64,000 nucleotides of DNA from Octopus vulgaris (lineage: Eukaryota), in NCBI GenBank assembly GCA_951406725.2, contig OX597834.1:29946001-30010000 (forward strand), given 5' to 3'. The notes under the pieces are model-generated. The model had not been told where the DNA came from and made no database searches. It was given only the letters and a program-made list of their open reading frames with translations. Each line of letters starts with the position of its first letter. The stretch's first letter is position 1. The position numbers were made by a program, and so were the translations under genes. Positions 465 to 61,950 of this stretch are shown here, in pieces.

Positions 465-532
465 TTCACTGACAGCCCTGTGATTGCTGTGTGCAGTGAC
501 AGTGGAGGGTCTGTGTTTGAACTGGAATTCAA
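465..532 (+). CDS. VPS8: VPS8 exon 1 (first in window): [22 protein letters not shown](K)
   Basis: tttcag| ... |gtaagt; 68 nt. Confidence 0.92.
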
Positions 533-2608
533 GTAAGTCACTTCTATTATTCATTTATTATCACTTTTACTTTATCCTTTATCTCTCATCATCATTGTTT
601 TGTTGTGTTTTCATGATGTTTGCATGTTTAAGATATTTTATTATATTTGCTTTTATTTAAGAAACACACAAAAGCCGTTTGATTCACTTCAACATCTCAA
701 GATGCAGCAGTGATTTTTGTCAGTGAACAGGTCGCAGTCTTAAAGCGACGAAAATATTTTGACAAATTAAACTTAAATGTTGAAGTGAATCGAGCGGCTT
801 TTGTGTGTTTCTTAAATGGCTTACAAACACCTTCCACGCTGCAATTGTTTTCGTTTCAGCACACGATCTCAGATCAAATCACTTGCTATGCAAGTACATC
901 TCCGTAATTGCTTTTATTTGTTTGTAATTTGAATATTGGCAAAGGTTTGCTACTCCAACACTCACACAAGACATTGGGCAAATGGCTTTCTAAGATAGTG
1001 TCGAATCAAAGTATTATGTGTGAAATTTGGGAGATGACAAAAGATAGCTGATGAAATTAAGTTACTTTCTAGTGTTTCAATCTGTTTTAGTTCTTATGCT
1101 TCTGTGCCTTCACCTTTCATTCTCACCCAAGATTGGTAACTCAGTAAAATGTGTGTGTGGAAAGTAAGTGAGTGTACATATATATGTGTGTGTGTTTCAA
1201 GTGAGGCACAAAGCAGCTGATGATGTGTTGCTAAGAGAAATAACAACTGCTCGTGATTTCCCTTGAAGCACAAATATAAGCCAACACAGAAACATACACA
1301 CATGCACACACACACACACACAAACATTCACCACACACACATATGCAAGAGGCGTTTTTCAGTTTTTCATCTACCAAATCCAACCACAAAGCTTTGATCA
1401 GCCCAGGGCTTTAGTAGAAGACAGTTACCATGCTGTGGGACTAAAGTTGAAACTACTTGGTTAAAAAGCAAACATCTTAGACACACCATCATGCTTTCTC
1501 CTATACATGTGTGTGTGTATGTGTATATATTTCTTAACTACCCACAAGGGGCTAAACATAGAGGGGACAAACAAGGACAGACAAAGGTATAAAGTCGATT
1601 ACATCGACCCCAGTGCATAACTGGTACTTAATTTATCGACCCCAAAAGGATGAAAGGCAAAGTCGACATCGGCGGAATTTGAACTCAGAACGTAAAGGCA
1701 GACGAAACACTGCTACGCATTTCGCCCGACATGCTAACGTTTCTGCCAGCTCGCCGTGTATGTGTATAGAGTAAGGGAGAGAGAGAGAGTTCTGGTAGCA
1801 TTCTGTCTAATGACATATAATGTAATAGGTACATACTGTTAGTGCTCAAGTTGATTTACCACCTCAAACTTCAGCTTGAACTGCAATCAAAACACAAAGC
1901 AGTTATGTTATAGATGCCTAGCAATGAAAGACTATCGGCTGTTTGTCAGCCTCCTCCCAACGATAGAACTGATTGCTACTAAAATCTTCTTCTAACGATC
2001 TTCCTCATTTTGTCTCTGAAAATGCAATAGACCTCTACTGTATGGTAAGTGTATCTTTGCTTGCAAGGAAATGCATGACATGCACACCTGTCCTTAAAAC
2101 ACCTGTAGGACACTATCTGCACACCTTTCCATTTCATACTTTTTTTCTTCTTTTTGATTCTGTTGTAACAACTCAGCAATTCCCTCTCTCTCTCTTTCGG
2201 AGAGGCACTGAGCAGCTATACGCACACGGCAGTAACTTCCACCTACCGAATTCAATCACAAAGCTCCGGTCGGCTCGAGGCTATAGTGGAAGACACCTAC
2301 CCAAAGTGCCACGCAGTGGGACTGAACCCGAAACCATGATGTTCAAATATGTATATACCATAATCTAAACTGATGCCACTTGTTTACCCTACTCTTTACT
2401 CTTTTACTTGTTTCGGTCATTTGACTGCGGCCATGCTGGAGCACTGCCTTTAATCGAGCAACTCCACCCCGGGACTTATTCTTTTGTAAGCCCAGTACTT
2501 ATTCTATCGGTCTCTTTTGCCGAACCGCTAAGTAACGGGGACATAAACACACCAGCATCGATTGTCAAGCAATGCTAGGGGGACAAACACAGACACACAA
2601 ACACATAT

Positions 2609-2639
<31 letters not shown>

Positions 2640-5342
2640 CATATATACGACAGGCTTCTTTCAGTTTCCGTCTACCAAATCCACTCACAAGGTTTTGGTT
2701 GGTCCGCGGCTATAGTAGAAGACACTTGCCCAAGGTGCCACACAGTGGGACTGAACCCGGAAACATGTGGTTGGTAAACAAGCTACTTACCAAACACACA
2801 CACACACAAATATAGTCATGTACGCATATATACACATATTCACATAACTATTATATATTCATCAGTTTTAATGTATCTTTTGTTTGGTTTGTTTCTATTT
2901 TTCTTCCTTCAGGAGGTTGATCGGGGTGAGGACCTGCGAATCGAAGTGCCTGTTTTCAGGAAGGTATGTTTAACTTCATCAGCATCATCATTGTCAACAT
3001 CATCACTCTACCTTCATAGTGAATATCCTACCACTTCTGCCTCTTCCTCTTCATTTTCATCATCATTCCTCTAATCAGATTCCAATCTGAAATCATGATT
3101 GGTGAATAGTTAAATATACGACATGTGTTGCTGTTATTAAACATTTTAAATTTGTGCAATCTTAACTTTGAATTTACTCTGCGTTTTGATCCGCTTCGCC
3201 TCCATTCATGTTGGATTAGATTTAAATCTGGGAAACTTTTATCTTTAAACTCAGAGTACAAACACAATGGAGTAGAATCCACTAAAGGTGCCTGACAAAA
3301 TAAATAACACCTCTCCTGTGTTTGTGCATATTTATATATGTATCGGCGAGCTGGCAGAAACGTTAGCGCGCCGGGCGAAATGCGTAGCTGTATTTCGTCT
3401 GCCGTTACATTCTGAGTTCAAATTCCGCTGAGGTCGACTTTGCCTTTCATCCTTTCGGGGTCGATAAATAAAGTACCAGTTATGCACCGGGGTTGATGTA
3501 ATTGACTTAATCCCTTTGTCTGTCCTTGTTTAGCAGCCCCTTGTGGGCAGTAAAGAAATATATATATATGTATGTATACCATCACATGTTTTTAATGTCC
3601 ACTTTTGCATGCTGGCATGGGTCAGACATGTTTTTCTATGTCTGGATGCCCTTCCTGTCTCCAACCTTTACCTATTTCCAAGTAAGGTAACAGTTCCCTA
3701 TGACCAGACATTTTTTCATGCAAGACTGGAAACAAATTACATCACTGGCAGAATCATCAGAGTGTTAGATAAAATGCCTTGTGGCAGTTCTTCCAGCTTT
3801 CTATATCCTGAGTTCAAATCCTGCCGAGGTCAATACTCACTTTCATCCTTTCGTAGTTGGTAAAATACATGTACCAGTCATATACAGGGGTCAATGTAAT
3901 CAATGAAACACCCTCCACTCAAAATTGCTGGCTTATAAAGAAAACTTAAGCCAGATTATGGATCATAGACTAGCATGAAACTTTTGGTGAAAGGTTTTAA
4001 TTCAAAACTTCAAGATTGTATCATAGAACTTAAGGTGGTGGGACTGTCTCAGACAGGTTGAATTAAATTTCCATGCCACCCCGCTCCCATTTCATTATGA
4101 ATCTGTATTTGTTATTCCAGCCGAGGAGAAGTGTGTGTCATAGAACCACTACACATGAATTATACCATACAGGACCATCCCATGCATGATGTTATGATTC
4201 TGGCCATGGCATCTTTGTCCAAGGTAAGACACAGGAACCACTTTCACCGATATTAATGATCACTTTTCTCTTTACAGTTAATCTACTCCATTCTGAAGCA
4301 ATTTAAACTTGTTGCCAAAAGCATGGTTTTATTTTTTCTCTAGGTCTAAGTAAATGTTTTATCTTTAATCCTTGAGTGTTCAAATTATTCTGTCGAATGT
4401 AATGCTTATTTATTCACATTGTTTTGAATTAATCATGCATTATCTCATAGCTTTGGGTTTCACAATGATGGGATTAAATCCTTAAAATCCTTTAAAATGT
4501 TTTAGCCCGAAGGCTGTGGCCATGTTGGGGCACCACCGCTCAACTATGCCCATACAACAGAAGGCACCACTGCCATCATTCAGTCTCCTAGGAAGAGTAG
4601 TCATATCTTCTTCAAATCATGTTTCCCCATCTTAAAGCAGACCATGTTAGATAATGTGGTCCTAAGTCTGATGACATAGAAGATATATCATATATGTGTG
4701 TGTGTAAGTGCAGGCGTTGCTGTGTGGCTTGTAAGTTTGTTCCCAACCTCTTGGTTTTAGGTTCAGTGTCACCATTGCATGGCATTTTGGGGCAAACATT
4801 TTCTACTTTAGCCTTGGGCTAACCAAAACCTTGTGAGTGGATTTGATAAACAATCTCCATGGTATAGTATCATCATCATCATTTTATGCTCATGTTCCAT
4901 GCTAGCATTTGTTGGACACCATCATCATCATCATTTACATTTAACATCCATATATATATATCATCATTGTTTAATGTCCGTTTTCCGTGCTAGCACGGGT
5001 TGGACGGTTCGACCAGGGTCTGGGAAGCCAGGAGGCTGCACCAAGCTCCAGTCTGATCTGGCAGTGTTTATACAGCTGGATGCCCTTCCTAACGGCAACC
5101 ACTCCGTGAGTGTAGTGGGTGCTTTTTACGTGCCACCTGCACAGGTGCCAGGGGAGGCTGGCAGCGTCCACGACCGGTTGGTGCTTATGTGCCACCGACA
5201 CAGGTATCACAACTACAATTTCCATTTGGTATTTATTTTGATGTTGATGTACTTGACTCAATAGGTCTCTTCAAGCACAGCAGGTCACATGCCACCGGCA
5301 CAGAAGCCAGTCAAGATGGCGCTGGCATCAGCCATGTTCGGC

Positions 5343-6302: not shown

Positions 6303-8004
6303 CATATATACGACAGGCTTCTTTCAGTTTCCGTCTACCAAATCCACTCACAAGGCAGTGGTCGGCCCGGGGCTATAGCAGAAGACATTTGCCCAAGATG
6401 CCACGCAGTGGGACTGAACCCGGAACCATGTGGTTGGTTAGCAAGCTACTTACCACACAGCCACTCCTGCGCCTGTGAAATTTTTCTGTTGTTGTTTTTA
6501 TTTTTAATTCTAAGATTGTTTTCCTTTTTTTTTTTTTTTTCCTTGTTTGTACTTTCCAGGGTGATTCTTCCACTCTGCCACTTCTTGCCTGGCAGTTTGT
6601 CATCATCCAAATCTCTGAAAGTGACCGTGTCATCGATCCAGTGTTGGCATTCGCTCGAGATAGCACCATCTACTTCTACCAGGTAAAAGAATATCTACTT
6701 AAGACTCATCATTCCCTAGCAAGTAGATTCAAGACCACAGACGGTTCCGAGATGGTAAATCGACCTGTTTCACATTGATTGACAAAATAGAAGAGAGAGA
6801 TTTTTTTCTCTTTCCATTTTTTTTCTCTCTCTTCTACTGTCCCCACTCCTTGGAGAATGAACTTTTTGCCATCTGTTATTGCTGTTAGGAGCTATCGCTA
6901 GATCACACTAGCTAACAACAGCCTTCTCTCTTGAGCTTAAACACATGCCTCATAAACACATGTCCATGCACATGCTAACACACATCAAATGCATGTCTCA
7001 TAGACATATACACACACACACACACACACATGCAAACATGCACAGACAACTTCCCAAATTTTCTGTGCCCCATTACTCTTCTAGGAAACTCTGATCACTG
7101 TCGACCATGCATCTGCACACAGGGCAAGTGCAGGCCAGGGCAAATGCAGGCCAGGGCAAATGCAGGCCAGGGCAAGTGCAGGCCAGGGCAAGTGCAGGCC
7201 AGGGCAAGTGCAGGCCAGGGCAAGTGCAGGCCAGGGCAAGTGCAGGCCAGGGCAAGTGCAGGCCAGGGCAAGTGCAGGCCAGGGCAAGCGCAGGACAGGG
7301 CAAGTGCAGGCCAGGGCAAGTGCAGGCCAGGGCAAGCGCAGGCCAGGGCAAGCGCAAGCGCAGGCCAGGGCAAGTGCAGGCCAGGGCAAGTGCAGGCAAG
7401 CACAGGCCAGGGCAAGTGCAGGCAAGCACAGGCAAGGGCAAGCTTTTATTTTCTACGAAGACTAGCAGCTGCCCATTCTTGCAGGTTTCTTCTTTCTCCA
7501 TGTCACCGATATTTATCCAAAGGAAAGGCCACTGAATGTGCATTCCTCCAAAGAATCTCCAGAGGAACATTACATGACAGAACAAATACCACCATGCATT
7601 ATTATATCTGACAACCTTATGAACTGTGCCACTTCTTAAATATTTAATAATGGTCATATTAAAATTTATTGTCTATTCAAAACTGAAACCAAACGCTTTC
7701 TCATCTCCCGATACAGGAACTAAACTATACGATAACATTTCACAAGGTACAATAATCCATGAGATAACTAATAAATGAGATTAGATAACTGATAACAGTA
7801 TTATAGAATAATACATAAAAATAAGCAAAAACAAAAACAATTAGCTGTTAAATGAGATAGTCAACTGCTTTGGCTGACCCAGCACATCGTTATCTATCTA
7901 ATCACTCAATTATTACTAACGACGTCTCTTGCTTCCTCACTCTCTCTGTCTTTGTTTTTCTCTAAACCTTTCTCTTACAATCTCTTTCCTTCACTCACTC
8001 TCTG

Positions 8005-21797: not shown

Positions 21798-24700
21798 TTA
21801 GTCCCCACCTCCTCCAGCATCTAAAGTAGAATAACTTAAATATGTACGAGTTATTTCCCCCTTATAATTTTTCACTCAATCTCTGTAAAACGTGACTTCA
21901 GAATTGTAAAGGGACGTAATTCAATACTGCAAGATATTTTATCTTGCCCCACCGTTTCAACAATCAATCAATAATAATAATAGTACTTTCTACTCTATGC
22001 AGAAGGCTTGAAATTAGTGGGAGGGACTTAGTCGATTACATCAGCCTCACCCTCGGTAGGATTTGAACTCAGAACGCAAAAACGGATGAAATACCACTAA
22101 GCACGGAAACTGAAAGAAGCTTTTTGAATGTGTGTGTGTGTACATACATGTATGTATGTATATGTTAGTGTTTGTGTCTCCTTGTCTGAACATCACATGA
22201 CAGCCGTGAAACAAGCTTCACCATCATGAAAGAAATACCCTTCATTTCCAGTCTCCCATGAAAACATGTCCATCCATGGAGAAATATTACCTTACTTGGA
22301 AACGGGTGGTTTCCTAGAAAATCTGCCTGTCTCTGTAGAGTTTGTCCATGGCTTCTCTACCCTTTGACAGGTTTTATTTCTAATCCTCCTGTGCCTCACC
22401 ATGCCCTCCTAACCTCATAAACTGGGTGGACTTAACTAGTTAAGTGTTGGACTCTCTACCCCTCACTCTAAACCCTAAAGTAAACCCAACCGTAATTTTA
22501 ACTCATTTTCTTATTCTTGTAGTGAAATTACATTTGTTTCATTTAATTTGAAAACTAGGAGGGCCTGGCTATGCGGTAAGAAATTTGCTTACCAACCACA
22601 TGGTTCTGGGTTCAGTCCCACTGCATGGCACCTTGGGCAAGTGTCTTCTACTATAGCCTCAGGCCAACCAAAGCCTTGTGAGTGGATTTGGTAGACTGAA
22701 ACTGTGTGTGTTTGTGTGTCCCACCACTGCTTGACAACTGGTGTTGGTGAATTTACATCGAGACTGATAGAATTAGTACCATGCTTAAAAACAAAATACA
22801 AGTCCTGCTGCCAATTCATTCAACTAAAATCCTTCACGGTTGTACCCCAGCATGGCCACAGTCTAATGACTAAAACAAGTGAAAGATAATAAAAGACATT
22901 TATTTCTAATCTTTTATACTTCAAAATGAAACAAGCAACAGGTTTTCTTCCTTCTTTCTTCTTTCTTTCTTTTTTCTTTCGTATTCAATTTGTTTCCTTT
23001 CCTTCTTCTTCTTCAGATGTTGAATCTGTTGTTTGAATTTGTGGATTTATCAATGACTCAGTTTTGTCCTGAAAAGGGGAAAATTGAAACTTTGGAAGAC
23101 TATTACCAGGTAAACCACTTTCAATTTAAACCTATTTTCCTTTTAAATCACCTCCAGGGACATCTTTCTATTCCTCTCTTTGCATTTTGAAACTGTTTTT
23201 CAAATTTGTTTCTTTTACTCTTCATGTACATATTTAACCCTTTCGTTACCAAACCGGCTGAAACTGGCTCTGGCTACAAATGTCTTGTTTTCATGAGTTT
23301 TGAATTAAAATCTTCCACCAAATCTTAGACACAATTTATGTTCCTAACACTAGCTGAATGATAACCAAGTTATTTTACTAAATTCTTTGTTATATTTAAA
23401 GTAATTCAAAGAAACACAGAGCATCTCAAAATAAATACGGTAACAAAAGGGTTAATGGGATTGTATCTTTGCTTTTCATCCCTCCAGGAGTCAATAAGAT
23501 GAAGTGTCAGTCACGCACTGTCACTGATGAAACCAACGAAACCCCTTCGTCAAAATTTCAGGCCTTGTGCCTAAATTTAAAAAATTTTATCATTATTATT
23601 AATAAAAGACATGTAATGCCATACTAACCATGTGTGTGGATATAACGGTTAGTAAAACATATTAAAATACTAACCATCATCATCATCGTTTAACGTCCGT
23701 TTTCCATGCTAGCATGGGTTGGACGGTTCAACCGGAATCTGGGAAGTCAGAAGGCTGCACCAGGCTCCAGTCTGATCTGGCAGTGTTTCTACAGCTGGAT
23801 GCCCTTCCTAACGCCAGCCACTCCGTGAGTGTAGTGGATGCTTTTTACGTGCCACCGGCACAGGTGCCAGGCAAGGCTGGCAACGGCCATGATCGGATTG
23901 GTGCTTTTTACATGCCACCGGCATGGAAGACAGTCAAGGCGGTGCTGGCATCAGCCATGTTCGGATGGTGCTTTTTACGTGCCACCGGCACAGGTGCCAG
24001 GCAAGGCTGGCAACGGCCATGATCGGATTGGTGCTTTTTACGTGCCACCGGCATGGAAGCCAGTCAAGGCAGCGCTGGCATCAGCCACGTTTGGATGGTG
24101 CTTTTTACGTGCCACCAGCACAGGGATCACAACTACAATTTCAGTAGATATAATAGTAGTACAAAGTAGATCAAAATACTGACCAGACATGTAGATATAA
24201 TAATGAGGAAAATGTATTCAAATAGGGGCCACATATGTAGCTGTAATGGTTAGTAAAATATGTTGACATACTAACCACATTTGTAGAAATAATAGTAGTA
24301 CAAAATACATTCAAATACTGCCCACATTTGTTTACCTTTTCTGTTAATGACAGGTTAATTCTTTCTGCTAATTATGTACTTAACTGACCATCACCTCCGC
24401 CACTACTATCTCCTCTACATGCTTCTTTATTCATATTTTTTACTTGTTCTACTCTTAATAACAATTTGCATGGACCGCCTCCACTAATACCTGGAATCTC
24501 CCTCTTCTCTTTCCCAGGGTATCGTTCCAGTGTGTGTAGACTATTGCCTATGCTTGGAATGTGTGTAAGTAAAATTCTTCTCCTGTAATTAAAAATTAAT
24601 TAACTACCTCATTAGACAATAGGACCTCTATACTTCTCTCAACCATCTAGAAATAACCACTAAGTCTCCCTCAAATCCCAACCTACTTTGTTAAGAAAAA

Positions 24701-31700: not shown

Positions 31701-33627
31701 TATCAACCCCAAATGGGTGAAAGACAAAGTCAACCTCAGCAGGGTTTGAACTCAGAATGTGAAGACAATTGAAATGCCCCTAAGCATTTTGTCTGAGATT
31801 CCAACAGTTCTACCAGCTCACCACATTGATGATGTTGATGATGATGATAATAATAATAATAATCATCATCATCATCATCATCGTTTAGCGTCCGCTTTCC
31901 ATGCTCGCATGGGTTGGACGGTTCAACTGGGGTCTGGGGAGCCAAAAGGCTGCACCAGGCTCCAGTCTGATCTGGCAATGTTTCTACGACTGGATGCCCT
32001 TCCTAATGCCAACCACTCCATGAGTGTAGTGGGTGCTTTTTACGTGCCACCGGCACAGGTGCCAGACGAGGCTGGCAAACGGCCACGATCGGATATAATA
32101 ATAATAAATTACTATTATTATTATTAGTTTCCAATTTAGGAACAAGACCAGTATTTTGATGAGGAAGGGTTTAGTCCAGACCCTCAAGCCCATTACTTGA
32201 CCAGGGTAAATAGATTTATCAACCTCAAAAAGATCTAAGGCATAGTTGGCCTTCATCCGTATGTGTCTTTATATATATACATGTGTGTGTGTGTGTTTAT
32301 TCAGATGATGTAAATGTTTTATGTAAACTTGTGTGTATGTCTTTAGATGATATAAAATGTAAATATTTTATGCAAATATAAGGTGTACCCAATGTAAGCT
32401 ATGGATGCATAAGAGGTGCAGTGACATCAAAAGAAGGTTAACCGGGAAGATGGCTTTTGTGTGCAGCAGATGCACAGGGGCAATAAACACCACAGATGCT
32501 CAGAAAACTGATTCCATCACATGCCAAGGGGAGAAATTAGAAGTAGTGAATAGCTTCTGCTACCTAGGTGACCAAGTCTGTAGTTGGGGTGGATGCTCGG
32601 AGAGCATTGCCACTAGAATAAGAATAGCCTGGGCAAAGTTCAGCAAGCTCCTACCTCTGCTGGTGACAAAGGGCCTCTCGCTCAGAGTGAAAGGTAGACT
32701 GTATGGTGCATGTGTGTGAACTGGCATACTACATGGCAGTGAAACATGGACCATGACTGCTGAAGACATGCGTAGGCTTGAAAGAAATGAAGCTAGTACG
32801 ATTTGTTGGATGTGTAAGCACCCTGAGAGAAATGTTGGACATAAGAAGCATCAGACATGGTGTGCAAGAGAGACGACTATGCTGGTATGGTCGTGTGCTG
32901 CCTATGGATGAGGAGAGCTGTGTGAAGTGTCACTCCCTAACAGTGGAAGGAACCCGTGGAAGAGGGAGATTCAGGAAGATATGGGATGGGTGGTGAAGCA
33001 TGACCTTTGAACGTTGGACCTCACAGAGGCAATGACAAAAGACTGAGACCTCTGGAGATATGTTGTGATTGAAAAGACCCAACAAGGAAACTGTGATCAC
33101 AGCCATAGCATAACCAGCCCATTCAAAAAGTACTTTTGAATCCTCAGGCAAGATTCTGTGCTTGAGGAGACCTATTGAGTCAAGTAAAATCAAAATCAAA
33201 TCACAATCAAATAGAAATTGTAGTTGTGGCTGTTACCAGTGCTGGTGGTACTTGATAAGCACCATTCATTCATGTGTGGGTCATTGCCAGAGCTGCCTGA
33301 CTGGCTCCCCATGCTGGTAGCATGTAAAAAGCACCATCCGAACATGGTCGATGCCAGCGCCCCCTCTCTGACTGGCTTCTGTGCCAGTGGCACATAAAAA
33401 GCACCATCCAATCATGGCCAATGCCAGTGCCGTCTGACTGGTTCCCATGCCAGTGGCATGTAAAATGCACCCACTACACTATCGGAGTGGTTGGTGCTAT
33501 AAAGGGCATTCAGCCGTAGAAACATTGCCAGACCAGATTGGAACCTGGTGCAGCCTTCTGGCTTGCCAGTCTCCAGTCAAACCGTCCAACCCATGCGAGC
33601 ATGGAAAACTGATGTTAAATGATGATG

Positions 33628-46831: not shown

Positions 46832-49410
46832 TTAGAGATAAAACCACTATTATGCAACTCAAATAGTGATAGACATAAACCAATACATAAATAACCAATA
46901 TATATATATAATTAAAAAAATTTTTTTTTTTAAATGTATAACTTATAACTAGATCTCTAAGTATAAAATGAATGATAAATATATAATATAATATGTAAAT
47001 GTATATATTTATTTATTTGCATTTTTGTATTATGTGTTTTATTGTGTTCTGTTTTCTGTCGTTCAAGATGTGGCCATAGTTACCACACGAGCTGCCTGCG
47101 TGGAATTGGTTCGTTACACGTAATTGATGGTGAAGATTATTGGAGCTGTTATTTATGCAGCAACTCAAAGAAAAAAGGTCGTACTCAGAGTACACGTTTC
47201 CACAGAGCCTCAACTTTGAGCTCAGTTGCTGCTCATTCTAGTCAAGGTGGGGCCCTGGCAACACAGTCCAAAGAGGTAAATAGCAACCCTTAACATTTAG
47301 CCATTTTTCTTTCTTTTAAATTTTCAGTTTTTAATTAAATATGATTTAATTTCTGGTGTGTACAATTAAAACAGTATTCTTTATATTCCTTACATTTGTC
47401 AGCAAAAAATACATTTTATAAATACATAAAAAAATTATGCATATATTAAAATTTCTTTACATTTAATAAAACTGAAAACAATTAGGACTGTTTGTAAGTT
47501 TTAGAAAAAATATATAAGGAATTGGTTAATTTAAATTACATATGATACACAGATGGCTATTATAATTTAATGTATTCACACTTTTTATAGGCCAAATTAC
47601 TGGTGTATTTATCCCGAGATAACATGTCTCATTGAATTACTGTGCTAAAAACAACAAATATCAGAGATGAAAATTCATGGAAGAAGCAGCAGCCAGTAAG
47701 AGCACCAGATGCATTCCAAGCTTGAGCATGTGGCTGGTTGTGAGTGTGCAACACTGGAAAACTCCAAAATAGCCTGAAAATGCATTTGGCTCCCTCACTG
47801 GCTGCTGGGAGAAATTTTCATCTCAGAACAAACACTGTAGTAATTGCACCAATCACTATTGGTATTACATCCACTCTCTTTGTTGCCCACAACAACCTGT
47901 GTATTTCCCCCTTCAATCCATCATAGTTGTTCACTTTGCCTTCTTCTTTCTCTTTGATCTTGTTGTCTCCAAGACATGCTATTGGCGATTATCTGATGGT
48001 CACACTGAATCACTGCATTCCACAGGATTTTGCAATCTTCTTTCTCCTTTTCAGATTTGGTCATTCCACATCTTTGATCTTTCTAGACCTTAATTTCCAC
48101 AGAGCTCCCACTTGATCACTCTCGCTACACTGTCATGTCATCTTTTGTATTTACATTTCATGTCATCATCATCATCATTGTTTAACATCCGTTTTCCATG
48201 CTAGCATGGGTTGGACGATTCGATCAGGGTCTGGGAAGCCAGGAGGCTGCACCAGGCTCCAGTCTGATCTGGTAGAGTTTCTACAGCTGGACGCCCTTCC
48301 TAACGCCAACCACTTCAGGAGTGTAGTGGGTGCTTTTTACGTGCCATGATCGGTTGGTGCTTCTTACATGCCATCAGTATGGAAGCCAGTCAAGGCAACG
48401 CTGGCATCGGCCACGTTCGGATAGTGCTTTTTACGTGCTACCGTCACAGGTATCATCATCATCATCGTTTAGCGTCCGCTTTCCATGCTAGCATGGGTTG
48501 GACAGTGCAACTGGGGTCTGGGAAGCCAGAAGGCTGCACCAGGCCCAGTCTGATCTGGCAATGTTTCTACGGCTTGATGCCCTTCCTAACGCCAACCACT
48601 CCATGAGTGTAGTGGGTGCTTTTTACGTGCCACCAGCACAGGTGCCAGACGAGGCTGGCAAACGGCCACAATTGGATGGTGCTTTTTAAGTGCCCACAAC
48701 TACAATTTCCATTTGATTTTTATTTTGATGTTGATGTACTTGACTCATTAAGTCTCCTCAACTATATCCAAACAAAAGCTTATGTCATTATTTATATTCA
48801 CATTGTTATTATTGTTGTTGTTGTTGTTATTATTGCTGCTATTTTTCTCCAGGAATATATTGACCCTCAGCATGCTGAAGCCTTTGAAAATTTACGGAAA
48901 TCCATGAAAACCCCTTCAAGGGTAAGTCTTGTTCTGGCCTCTCATATTTCAGTTAACAATTACAGAACATACAAAATAGGGGTCATGCTGGTGGACAGGG
49001 CGATACAGATTGGAGCAGAGGGAGGTAACAAGAGGGAGTGTAATGCTATAGAGTTAGCAGGTGGTAGGGGCTACTGGGGTGGGGATATAAAACCTCAGAT
49101 AGCAAAGATTAAGTGCATTTGAGACTCACTGCATGTCTCACTACATGGACCCACAATGCTATGGATCAGGGAATCTTGTTTGAGAAGAGCTACATATCTT
49201 TTCTCTTAGCCTGAGACTGTGGCCATGCTGGGGCACTGCTTTGTAGGGTTTAGTTAAACAAATAGACCCCAGGACTTATTCTTTTAAGCTTGCTTTCCTC
49301 GTTTCAATATGCTGTGTAATTATAGTGAAAAATATTGTGTGGTTAGACGATCCAAGGTCTTCTTTCAGCATCTCGGCATAGAAAATTTTTTTCTGTTGCC
49401 CTTATTTATT

Positions 49411-56906: not shown

Positions 56907-57252
56907 AACAATCGCAGCGTGGAAGTTGTTTATAAGCCATTTAAGAAACACACAAAAACTGTTAGATTCACTTCAACATTTAAATTTAATTTGTCAAAAT
57001 ATTTTCGTCGCTTTCAGACCACAACCTGTTCACTGACAAAACTCCGTGCTGCATCTCAGAGTTTTGTCAGTGAACAGGTTGTGGTCTCAAGGCGATGAAA
57101 ATATTTTGACAAATTAAATGTAAATGTTGAAGTGAATCGAACAGTTTTTGTGTGTTTCTTAAATGGCTTACAAACACCTTCCATGCTGCAATTGTTTTTT
57201 TCCAGCACACTATCTCAAATCAGGTCACTTGCTATGCAAGTACATCTCTGTA
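56907..57252. mobile_element. Foldback element (arms 56907-57044 and 57059-57196, plus tail) in (TA)n
   Basis: Inverted arms seen directly; homologous to 659-908. Confidence 0.85.
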
Positions 57253-59882: not shown

Positions 59883-61132
59883 ATATATATATATATATAC
59901 ACACACATATATGTATGCATGTATATATGCATGCATATATGTATGTATTACATATATATGCATGTACGTATGTATGTGTGTATGCATTTATTTATGTATA
60001 TACGCATGTGTTATATATGTATGTATGTATGTATGTACGTATGTATGTGGGGATGTTTGGATGGATGGCCGTGTGCTTCAGAAGCTAGTCTCAAGCCAAT
60101 CAAAGCCTTTTGTGAGTAGATTTGGAAGAAGGAAACTGAAGGAAGCCCATCATATATGTGTGTGTGTGTGTGTGTGCCTTCATAGTTGTGCTTGTCCCTC
60201 CACCACCACTTGACAACCCGTGTTAGTTTGTTGATGTCTCCACAACATGACAGTTCCGCAAAAGGGTCCAACAGGGTAAGCACAAGGCTTTAAAATTAGT
60301 ATATAAGCCTTGTGGGGGGGGGGGTGATTTGTTCAATTAAACCCTTTGAGTTGGTGCCCCAGCATGGTCGCAGTCCAATGACTGAAACATGTAAAGGATA
60401 AAAGCGAAACATGCACACATGTATCTGCATGTGCATGTGTGGTTGTATGCATCATCATCATCATCATCTTGTTTCCACGTCTGGATACCCTCTCTGATGC
60501 CATATGTGCGTGTATTTGTGTGTGTGTTCGTATGTGCACAAATATATGCGGGTGGGTGTGGGAGTAGGTATGCATGGATGGGTATGTACATATATGTGTA
60601 TAGGGAGAATTGCGTGGGTGGATACACACACACACATGTATACAGCATGCTTATAGTACAGACAAGTGATATGTATATATATATATATATATATTCATAT
60701 ACACTCACAACACATATACACATTACATACATATATACATACATACATACAAAGAGAATGGTATGTACACACACACACTTATATTTGTACAAATGGAGAA
60801 CAGCTTTACTCTGAGGCACAATTAATTAAAACCACAACTTAGCCTGGTTTATGTTCCAGATTTTTAATATTTAATATTTCCTGATTAATTCTCTTCTTTC
60901 TCTTCTTCTCCTGGCTGTTGTTCTTGCTCTTGCTCTTGTACTGTTGCTCACAAACTCATATCTTTAATCTTTTACTAGTTTCGCTCATTGGTCTGTGGCC
61001 ATGCTGGGGCACTGCATTGCAGGGTTTTAACTGAATGAACCAACTCCAGCACTCATGCTGAACTGCTAAGTTACAGGGATGTAAACAAACCAACACTGGT
61101 TGTCAAGGTGTGGCATGGGGACAAACACAAAC

Positions 61133-61950
61133 ATCATCATCATCATCATCGTTAAATGTCTGCTTTCCATGCTGACATGGATTGGACAGTTTGACTGAGG
61201 GCCGGCGAGCCAGAAGGCTGCACCAGGCTCCAATCCAATCTGGCAATGTTTCTACAGCTGGATGCCCTTCCTATCGCCAACCACTCCGAAAGTGTAGTGG
61301 GTGCTTTTTATGTGCCACCAGCACGAGGGCCAGTCAAGTGGTACAGGCATCGGCCACACTTGAATGGTGCTTTTTATATACCACCAGCATAGGAGCCAGT
61401 CAGGCAGTACTGGCAATGACCATGCTCAAATGGTGCTTTTTACGTGCCACCGGTACGGGACCAGTTAGGTGGCACTGTTCATCTACCACACTTGAATGGT
61501 GTTTTTTACGTGTTACTGGCACAGGTGCCAATCAAGCGGTACTATCATTGGCTACAACGATGACTTCACTTGCCTCAACAGGTCTTCACAAGCACAGTTT
61601 ATTGCCCAATGACTGAAGGCTACTCTTAAATGGGCAGATGATACTGCACTGGCATAGGTCATGGATCACGGTCTCACTTGGCTTCCAGAGTCTTCTCCAG
61701 TACAGCATATCTCCAAAGGTCTCGGTCACTTGTCATCACCTCGGTGAGGCCCAACATTCGATGGTCATGCTTCACCACCTCATCACAGGCCTTCCTGGGT
61801 CTACCTCTTCCACAGGTTCCCTCAACTGCTTGGGTGTGACACTTTTTCACACAGCTGTCATCATCCATATGTAACACATGACCATACAAGTGCAGTCATC
61901 TCTTTTGCACACTATGTCTGATGCTTCTTATGTCCAACTTTTCTCCCAGG
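61133..61950 (-). mobile_element. 5'-truncated RTE LINE, same family as 32380-33630
   Basis: YGHVLHMDDDSCVKKC..VEGTCGRGRPRK plus the same 3' UTR and (CAT)n. Confidence 0.88.

Follow-up and report, generated by a model that had tools for sequence, protein, structure and literature searches.

A hammerhead-like motif whose core carries G3-C8 instead of the C3 and G8 of the consensus lies in an intron of VPS8 in Octopus vulgaris. Its position raises the question of what it belongs to, whether its exchanged tertiary pair is an accident of one copy, and whether it does anything for the gene that surrounds it. We analysed it within a stretch of 64,000 nucleotides (the window), with copies counted genome-wide (genome size 2.8 Gb). 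The motif has the following parts.

716-766, plus strand: type I minimal hammerhead motif, recognised by its letters, folding and a descriptor
716-722/760-766, plus strand: stem I, 7 bp
723-729, plus strand: core GTGAACA (G3 = 723, C8 = 728, A9 = 729)
731-735/745-749, plus strand: stem II, 5 bp
750-752, plus strand: GAA
753-758, plus strand: palindromic helix III, AATATT
759, plus strand: U17, with the predicted cut between 759 and 760

The stems, core, GAA, palindrome and U17 read exactly as the original prediction described them. Its hammerhead architecture was right, and the one base that it left out is G730, an extra unpaired base between A9 and G10.1. The three-way junction is complete, with stems I and II, U4 G5 A6, A9, G12 A13 A14, A15.1-U16.1 and H17 all in place. 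The extra base at 9/10.1 (G730) is accompanied by a G10.1-C11.1 pair (G731-C749) and the palindromic helix III. The literal C3 and G8 of the CUGAnGA consensus are replaced by G3 and C8, which make a Watson-Crick 3-8 pair. A descriptor permitting any Watson-Crick 3-8 pair found exactly three sites in the 64-kb window, namely 716-766 and both arms of the homologous element at 56907-57252. At the strictest of three thresholds it found no site in any of 100 dinucleotide-preserving shuffles of the window, and at the two looser ones 3/100 and 8/100 shuffles had a match. The folding stability of the motif is modest (z -2.2; 6 of 200 shuffles were equally stable). For 640-930 Rfam gave 5 matches, none of them to a hammerhead family, and the same is true of the 150 matches listed, out of 240, for the whole window. 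Rfam miRNA matches in the window were rejected, as they reflect the foldback hairpin.

The host gene lies on the plus strand of the window. Two of its exons define the intron.

465-532, plus strand: VPS8 coding exon upstream of the insertion (Pfam PF23410 positions 119-140, and splice sites)
2913-2963, plus strand: next predicted VPS8 exon, which would fill Pfam positions 141-158

Among 21 candidate exons scanned against Pfam, five match the VPS8 beta-propeller (465-532 and four later ones) and two match the central TPR region. The exon at 465-532 matches Beta-prop_VPS8 (PF23410) with an E-value of 4.5e-6, which, for a piece of 22 amino acids, is below the whole-protein cut-off. A PDB match of the same 22-residue exon, to a single repeat protein, was discarded as spurious. 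With this exon upstream and the next predicted exon at 2913-2963, the motif is located in the VPS8 intron 533-2912. Both are on the plus strand, and the motif is therefore sense to the VPS8 pre-mRNA, as had been predicted.

The motif is nevertheless not a feature of VPS8, since it belongs to an insertion of a Penelope-like retrotransposon (PLE) with the following anatomy.

647-658, plus strand: left target-site duplication, 12 bp, identical to 908-919, with a 4-base overlap with the start of the inverted arm
655-699, minus strand: inverted truncated PLE arm, of which 655-695 is the reverse complement of about 777-817
700-909, plus strand: direct PLE arm, comprising the 3' part of the pseudo-LTR (pLTR) and the start of the ORF
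816-909, plus strand: first 31 codons of the PLE reverse transcriptase (RT)/GIY-YIG ORF, in a frame that continues into the ORF of the tandem copy L120 from 5334
852-909, plus strand: optional 'tail' of about 58 nt, bounded by the two 3' ends at which insertions preferentially stop
908-919, plus strand: right target-site duplication

Thus, 655-909 is a 5'-truncated, partly inverted PLE insertion with a 12-bp target duplication. Its division into an inverted arm (655-699) and a direct arm (700-909) follows from the anatomy of longer copies and of the tandem L120. Copies share a fixed 3' end at about 907 and vary in 5' truncation and inversion point; position 700 is the common 5' end of the short ones. 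A search of the genome with 33 bases of the element gives 7,388 exact matches. In long copies, a microsatellite-rich spacer and then a GIY-YIG domain are met on walking upstream of the motif (24.9 bits in L084; cut-off 22.6). A 1,025-residue open frame in L117 contains a YVDD RT motif, a CX3CX2C linker (also present in L083 and L118) and a GIY-YIG domain of 25.4 bits, above the Pfam cut-off of 22.6. The Pfam RT domain gave no match for L117 or for L121, a locus of a sister family, and the RT of L117 is assigned from its YVDD motif and a weak similarity to an RVT_1-bearing PLE protein of 781 amino acids (E 6e-9). L120 is a partial tandem with two same-strand motifs, at 5242 and 9503, in which the motif is followed by the ATG and then the ORF. 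In a rough string test, 42 of 80 loci have an inverted arm. An RT followed by a C-terminal GIY-YIG in a single ORF, a CX2-5CxxC linker, tandems, inverted arms and a tail are all found, as in EN+ PLEs. The element thus has the anatomy of an EN+ PLE of the Neptune/Nematis type. The original prediction had recognised the swap as a trait of a repeat family, but missed that this family is a PLE with a known pLTR hammerhead.

Other identities were considered for the repeat. A MITE or foldback DNA transposon was rejected, as there are no fixed terminal inverted repeats and the inversion points differ between copies. Retrozymes are non-coding tandem repeats of 150-400 nt beginning at the cut site. The copies found here derive by truncation from a coding element, and their starts precede the cut by about 60 nt, so a non-LTR retrozyme was rejected as well. 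One short tandem, L030, was seen among the copies. A GIY-YIG match 4 kb from a motif in L081 belongs to another PLE family and is a coincidence. Seven near-identical foldback copies (L152, L185, L186, L188, L189, L209 and L223) have a common junction, indicating that a single insertion was multiplied as such, perhaps as part of another repeat. Assembled contigs of four runs, labelled as four organisms, contain the element, with the G3-C8 core in consensus lines with loose ends; they are uninformative on ends, strand and level. The window also contains other dispersed SINE-like repeat families (4942-5164, 23661-23883, 31856-32078, 48153-48375 and 61124-61346; 1592-1755; 3351-3570; 2591-2801) and a 16-bp tandem array at 7072-7458.

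The window holds a second insertion of the element, from an older subfamily.

56907-57252: second insertion, in a (TA)n tract, with an inverted arm at 56907-57056 and a direct arm at 57059-57252
56990-57040, minus strand: hammerhead motif of the inverted arm
57063-57113, plus strand: hammerhead motif of the direct arm

Both arms have the GTGAACA core that had been reported for them. On the other hand, the G-U wobbles in stem II of this copy, formerly taken as a sign of selection, arise where the C of a CpG has become T. Over 189 arms, 28 C>T and 14 G>A changes were counted at the CpGs of stem II, as against 25 and 26 outside the motif (Fisher p 0.10). On this sequence pattern, the wobbles of the second copy are read as CpG decay. 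The whole of 56907-57252 folds as one long hairpin that sequesters both motifs, with a stem I probability of 0. Its transcript, if made, would be a near-perfect 150-bp RNA hairpin and a likely substrate for A-to-I editing.

The G3-C8 swap is fixed across the PLE family. A core-context pattern has 9,122 matches in the genome (control, 5), and the first 100 in genome order comprise 91 G3-C8 and no C3-G8. For the old subfamily, the first 100 of 428 matches comprise 79 G3-C8, 5 G3.G8 and again no C3-G8. These counts bear out the claim that the swap is a family trait and no single-copy mutation. In 20 ORF-centred stretches the descriptor found 17 motifs, 16 of them G3-C8, and with two further rows the list has 19, of which 18 are G3-C8 and one is G3.G8. 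A C3-G8 pattern in the 9-nt-loop context, outside which the 8-nt-loop subfamily falls, has no match in the genome. With a G3/C8 core, no C3-G8 in the first 100 matches of either list and no Rfam hammerhead match for 640-930, 716-766 is a variant and not a member of the consensus.

Conservation of the stems relative to the flanks across genomic copies had been proposed as a check on the motif. The comparison shows even decay, at 1.2% in the core without C8, 1.6% in the stems and 1.2% in the flank. Comparing stems with flanks across copies is the wrong level, however, and constraint is visible between subfamilies and families. In 189 arms, the common subfamily changes fall in 7 of the 9 loop II positions and at one non-CpG stem position, where they give a U-G wobble. 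U4 G5 A6, GAAA and U16.1 stay while loop II varies between subfamilies.

About 275 arms have a mismatched G3.G8. Some insertions carry it in both arms, indicating that mismatched templates got copied. We rejected G3.G8 as the fossil intermediate of a path from C3-G8 to G3-C8, as the 275 matches are scattered on old and young backgrounds. No site convincingly marks off a G3.G8 lineage, the G3.G8 matches are no more divergent, and in the old subfamily G3-C8 (79/100) outnumbers G3.G8 (5/100). C8 is changed in 12 of the 189 arms, while other non-CpG C positions are changed at 1.1% (p 2e-6). Hypermutability of C8 was not upheld, as the lists in genome order change positions 8 and 3 equally (3 vs 4 in the family A rows of the core-context list; 13 vs 11 in the old-subfamily list). 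A random double change at positions 3 and 8 gives a Watson-Crick pair one time in three, so that a single swap is weak evidence for selection on the pair.

Three relatives of the element were found by protein and not by motif. They have C3-G8 (L121), C3-G8 (the metagenome locus L315) and U3-A8 (the 781-residue family), indicating that the swap keeps the 3-8 tertiary pair. L121 represents a sister PLE with a protein of 1,312 amino acids, 54% identical, in a very young family with many open frames. Its hammerhead has C3-G8 and a C in place of A9. The metagenome relative L315 is 48% identical, and its motif (1676-1722) has the canonical core, the extra base as a C, the palindrome ATTAAT and A at position 17. 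The 781-residue family is young, with an upstream frame of 359-378 amino acids, and its U3-A8 hammerhead has the palindrome ACATGT and lacks the extra base. These hammerheads are located as follows.

L121, 8385-8432, plus strand: hammerhead of the 1,312-residue sister family, the same in L122 and L123
L042, 2661-2711; L038, 746-796; L082, 5559-5606: hammerheads of the 781-residue family

An older, CpG-decayed PLE family (L225-L254) has stems close to those of our motif, and the first 100 of its 138 matches are 85 U3.G8 and 15 C3-G8. We rejected the U3.G8 matches as an ancestral subfamily, as most belong to this separate older family. Four families were found without any selection on the core, and each has a Watson-Crick pair at 3 and 8. 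An alignment of 14 rows has 3-8 paired in 14/14 with four pair types, although it is partly circular (five rows come from a pattern demanding Y3 and G8) and its rows are related. As a whole structure it beats 500/500 shuffles and all slid controls in paired cells, with three U3-A8 rows one column off in stem II. Judged from these sequences, C3-G8 is likely ancestral and G3-C8 derived. The C9 of the 1,312-residue sister, an active element, and the mostly U3.G8 older family suggest that the constraint on catalysis may be loose.

The ends of the copies are a genomic test of which RNA serves as template. The census starts from the piece with 7,388 matches, which lies downstream of the motif, and covers the first 100 of them, all on one contig; these yielded 93 distinct arms, the remaining matches being identical in context and collapsed, or not recovered. 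The 5' ends cluster at a point that precedes the predicted cut by about 60 nt. They lie at about 696-706 in 45 of 93 arms (40 of 88 after collapsing near-identical composite copies), and three arms reach further upstream. No arm of the 93 starts at 760. Among 45 arms truncated further downstream, five begin in 755-765 where 5.2 are expected, so that there is no excess at the cut. Ends upstream of the cut, and none in excess at it, indicate that the copied RNA was mostly uncut. The 3' ends are at 837-852 in 46 of 93 arms, and the other 47 run on to 888 or beyond.

Eight of 12 arms starting at 700 are preceded by a G, apparently untemplated, where long copies have C (p 6e-4). Without two arms in which an inverted arm can explain the G, the count is six of 10 (p 0.006). 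A reverse-transcribed cap would leave such a G, as is known from work on L1. Just upstream of the common 5' end are a branch-like ACTAAC, a pyrimidine tract and CAG (L012, 1455-1510; L026, L027 and L084), an arrangement that recalls the pLTR intron of Drosophila Penelope, and the start and a splice site may coincide. Because 700-702 resembles a 3' splice site, the transcription start at 700 is a reading that we infer. The alternative is a spliced first exon upstream of 700; against it, arms starting at 700 share no upstream bases besides the single G.

We think it fairly probable that 716-766 is the pLTR hammerhead of a high-copy PLE, brought into the VPS8 intron by a truncated insertion, with a G3-C8 pair that is family-wide, and that it would cleave after U759 weakly, as a dimer or with the protein of the element. 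A ribozyme that is dead would explain the lack of ends at the cut just as well as one that is gated. The motif might be a hammerhead descendant that is catalytically dead, its stems kept for protein binding, promoter function or priming, with G3-C8 reached by drift and paired by chance. The C9 or U3.G8 of sister families and the copying of G3.G8 templates agree with such a scaffold, as does an anole PLE whose hammerhead is dispensable for insertion in vitro and at whose cut, as reported, no reads begin or end (PMC11167929). We consider it rather unlikely, given that subfamilies differ in loop II but agree in U4 G5 A6, GAAA and U16.1, that the 3-8 pair is Watson-Crick in four of four families found without core selection, and that, according to a structure cited in PMC9901934, this pair forms only in the active fold. 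A productive role in copying, proposed for PLEs in PMC4209133, is harder to reconcile with the ends. Two tandem hammerheads would pair via helix III and excise a circularising RNA that templates full-length copies, the short copies coming from uncut RNA. Partial tandems with two same-strand motifs do exist, as in L120, and the junction of a circle would restore the motif and leave no mark in DNA. A linear cut RNA, however, should give copies starting at 760, of which there are none, and the AATATT duplex has a predicted energy of -0.2 kcal/mol, which is very weak. We regard this model as improbable.

The marks of a domesticated intronic hammerhead, of the kind named HH9 and HH10, are a single copy, a conserved locus and a stable helix III. 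The present motif has thousands of copies and an unstable helix III. That it was co-opted to cut VPS8 pre-mRNA and regulate the gene is, of all the explanations, the one to which we give least credence, and we hold it to be very improbable. Its sense orientation, its intact core and folding in intron context (stem I probability 0.6-0.8, stem II 0.99) would permit such a role. On the other hand, it is one of thousands of young insertions with its target duplication intact, and closing helix III of the monomer in intron context is predicted to cost 5.4 kcal/mol. Just one further motif of the window lies on this strand, at a distance of 56 kb and locked within a hairpin, and single minimal PLE hammerheads reportedly gave no cleavage in PMC4209133. 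The VPS8 role implied by the original prediction is without support, and the lone copy in the intron is predicted to be silent and likely does nothing for the host gene. The consequence for VPS8 is little.

Under the preferred reading, that of a weakly cleaving hammerhead of the PLE itself, the element RNA would be transcribed from 700, with the cut following after about 60 nt and the ATG after 116 nt. Reverse transcription would be primed inside the first ORF codons, at two sites (about 850 and 907). Copying would usually run to the capped 5' end of uncut RNA, giving the many copies of 150-210 nt. A cut at 759/760 would decap the mRNA or, in the 3' repeat, remove the priming sites, so that the ribozyme, with cleavage after 759 that is weak and gated by a dimer or a protein, would most likely be a gated brake or a late processing step, and no maker of the copied ends. 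A stronger proposal is possible but tentative, namely that this is the first natural G3-C8 hammerhead. With the PLE protein it would be active and serve as a brake by feedback, taking the cap or the priming sites off the element RNA, with the result that only uncut capped RNA is copied. If so, evolution would have settled, in a retrotransposon that was amplifying, on the very exchange once engineered in the laboratory to demonstrate the active fold, and PLE families with G-C, C-G, U-A and U.G at 3-8 would coexist in one genome.

Lünse, Weinberg and Breaker (2017) are said to describe small PLE hammerhead variants that cleave as dimers, by title the same motif class, and they may list G3-C8. 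The literature searched, which stops short of that paper and of supplementary file 1 of PMC4209133, contains no natural G3-C8 hammerhead, only engineered swaps (PMC3884650, PMC8495972, PMC11167929 and PMC9901934, for the parts covered). Hammerheads in PLE repeats were already known, and what may be new is the family-wide natural swap. Ribozyme searches fix C3-G8 or add U3-A8, and like Rfam they thus overlook a family of about 9,000 matching motifs. The same oversight may affect other PLEs that are said to lack a hammerhead. A swap fixed in nature, with C-G and U-A in relatives, points on evolutionary grounds to a continuing need of PLE hammerheads for the catalytic fold, a need put in question when the motif proved dispensable in vitro.

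The octopus motif closely resembles the PLE minimal hammerheads of Cervera and de la Peña (2014, PMC4209133), whose marks are an extra base between 9 and 10.1, G10.1-C11.1 and a palindromic helix III. It shares with them the type I topology, these three marks with a short helix III, a place in the pLTR of an RT-GIY-YIG element, and an occurrence mostly as solitary truncated copies and opposite-strand pairs. It differs in its G3-C8 core and its longer stem I (7 bp). The 56 motifs of their Fig. S3 comprise 53 C3-G8, 2 U3-A8, 1 U3.G8 and no G3-C8, and a U3-A8 variant is reported. A single motif did not cleave in that work, and dimers cleaved at a low level.

In the anole Poseidon element PAc (Frangieh et al. 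2024, PMC11167929), cleavage is lost with either C3G or G8C and partly regained with both. A mutational scan found the G3-C8 swap to be the only rescuing double change in its region (PMC9901934). In PAc, cleavage depends on the PLE protein, and insertion is possible in vitro without cleavage. In both elements the motif stands where the pLTR meets the ORF, insertions end at two sites within the first codons and so delimit a tail, and there is no sign of cut RNA as template. The PAc pair is C3-G8, with G3-C8 engineered only, whereas the octopus G3-C8 is natural. The ATG is inside the motif in PAc but 50 nt downstream of the motif in octopus, the tails differ (about 58 nt in octopus), and the octopus element has a zinc-finger-like linker, which Poseidon, as described there, lacks.

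Natural core variants were reported by Perreault et al. (2011, PMC3088659), with covariation at the 3-8 tertiary pair as in the families compared here and with U3-A8 as the only such variant in the part covered. In its anatomy, the element is most like the Neptune/Nematis EN+ PLEs (PMC8557442), with which it shares the C-terminal GIY-YIG, a CX2-5CxxC linker, partial tandems, an inverted 5'-truncated arm, a one-sided tail and (TA)n targets.
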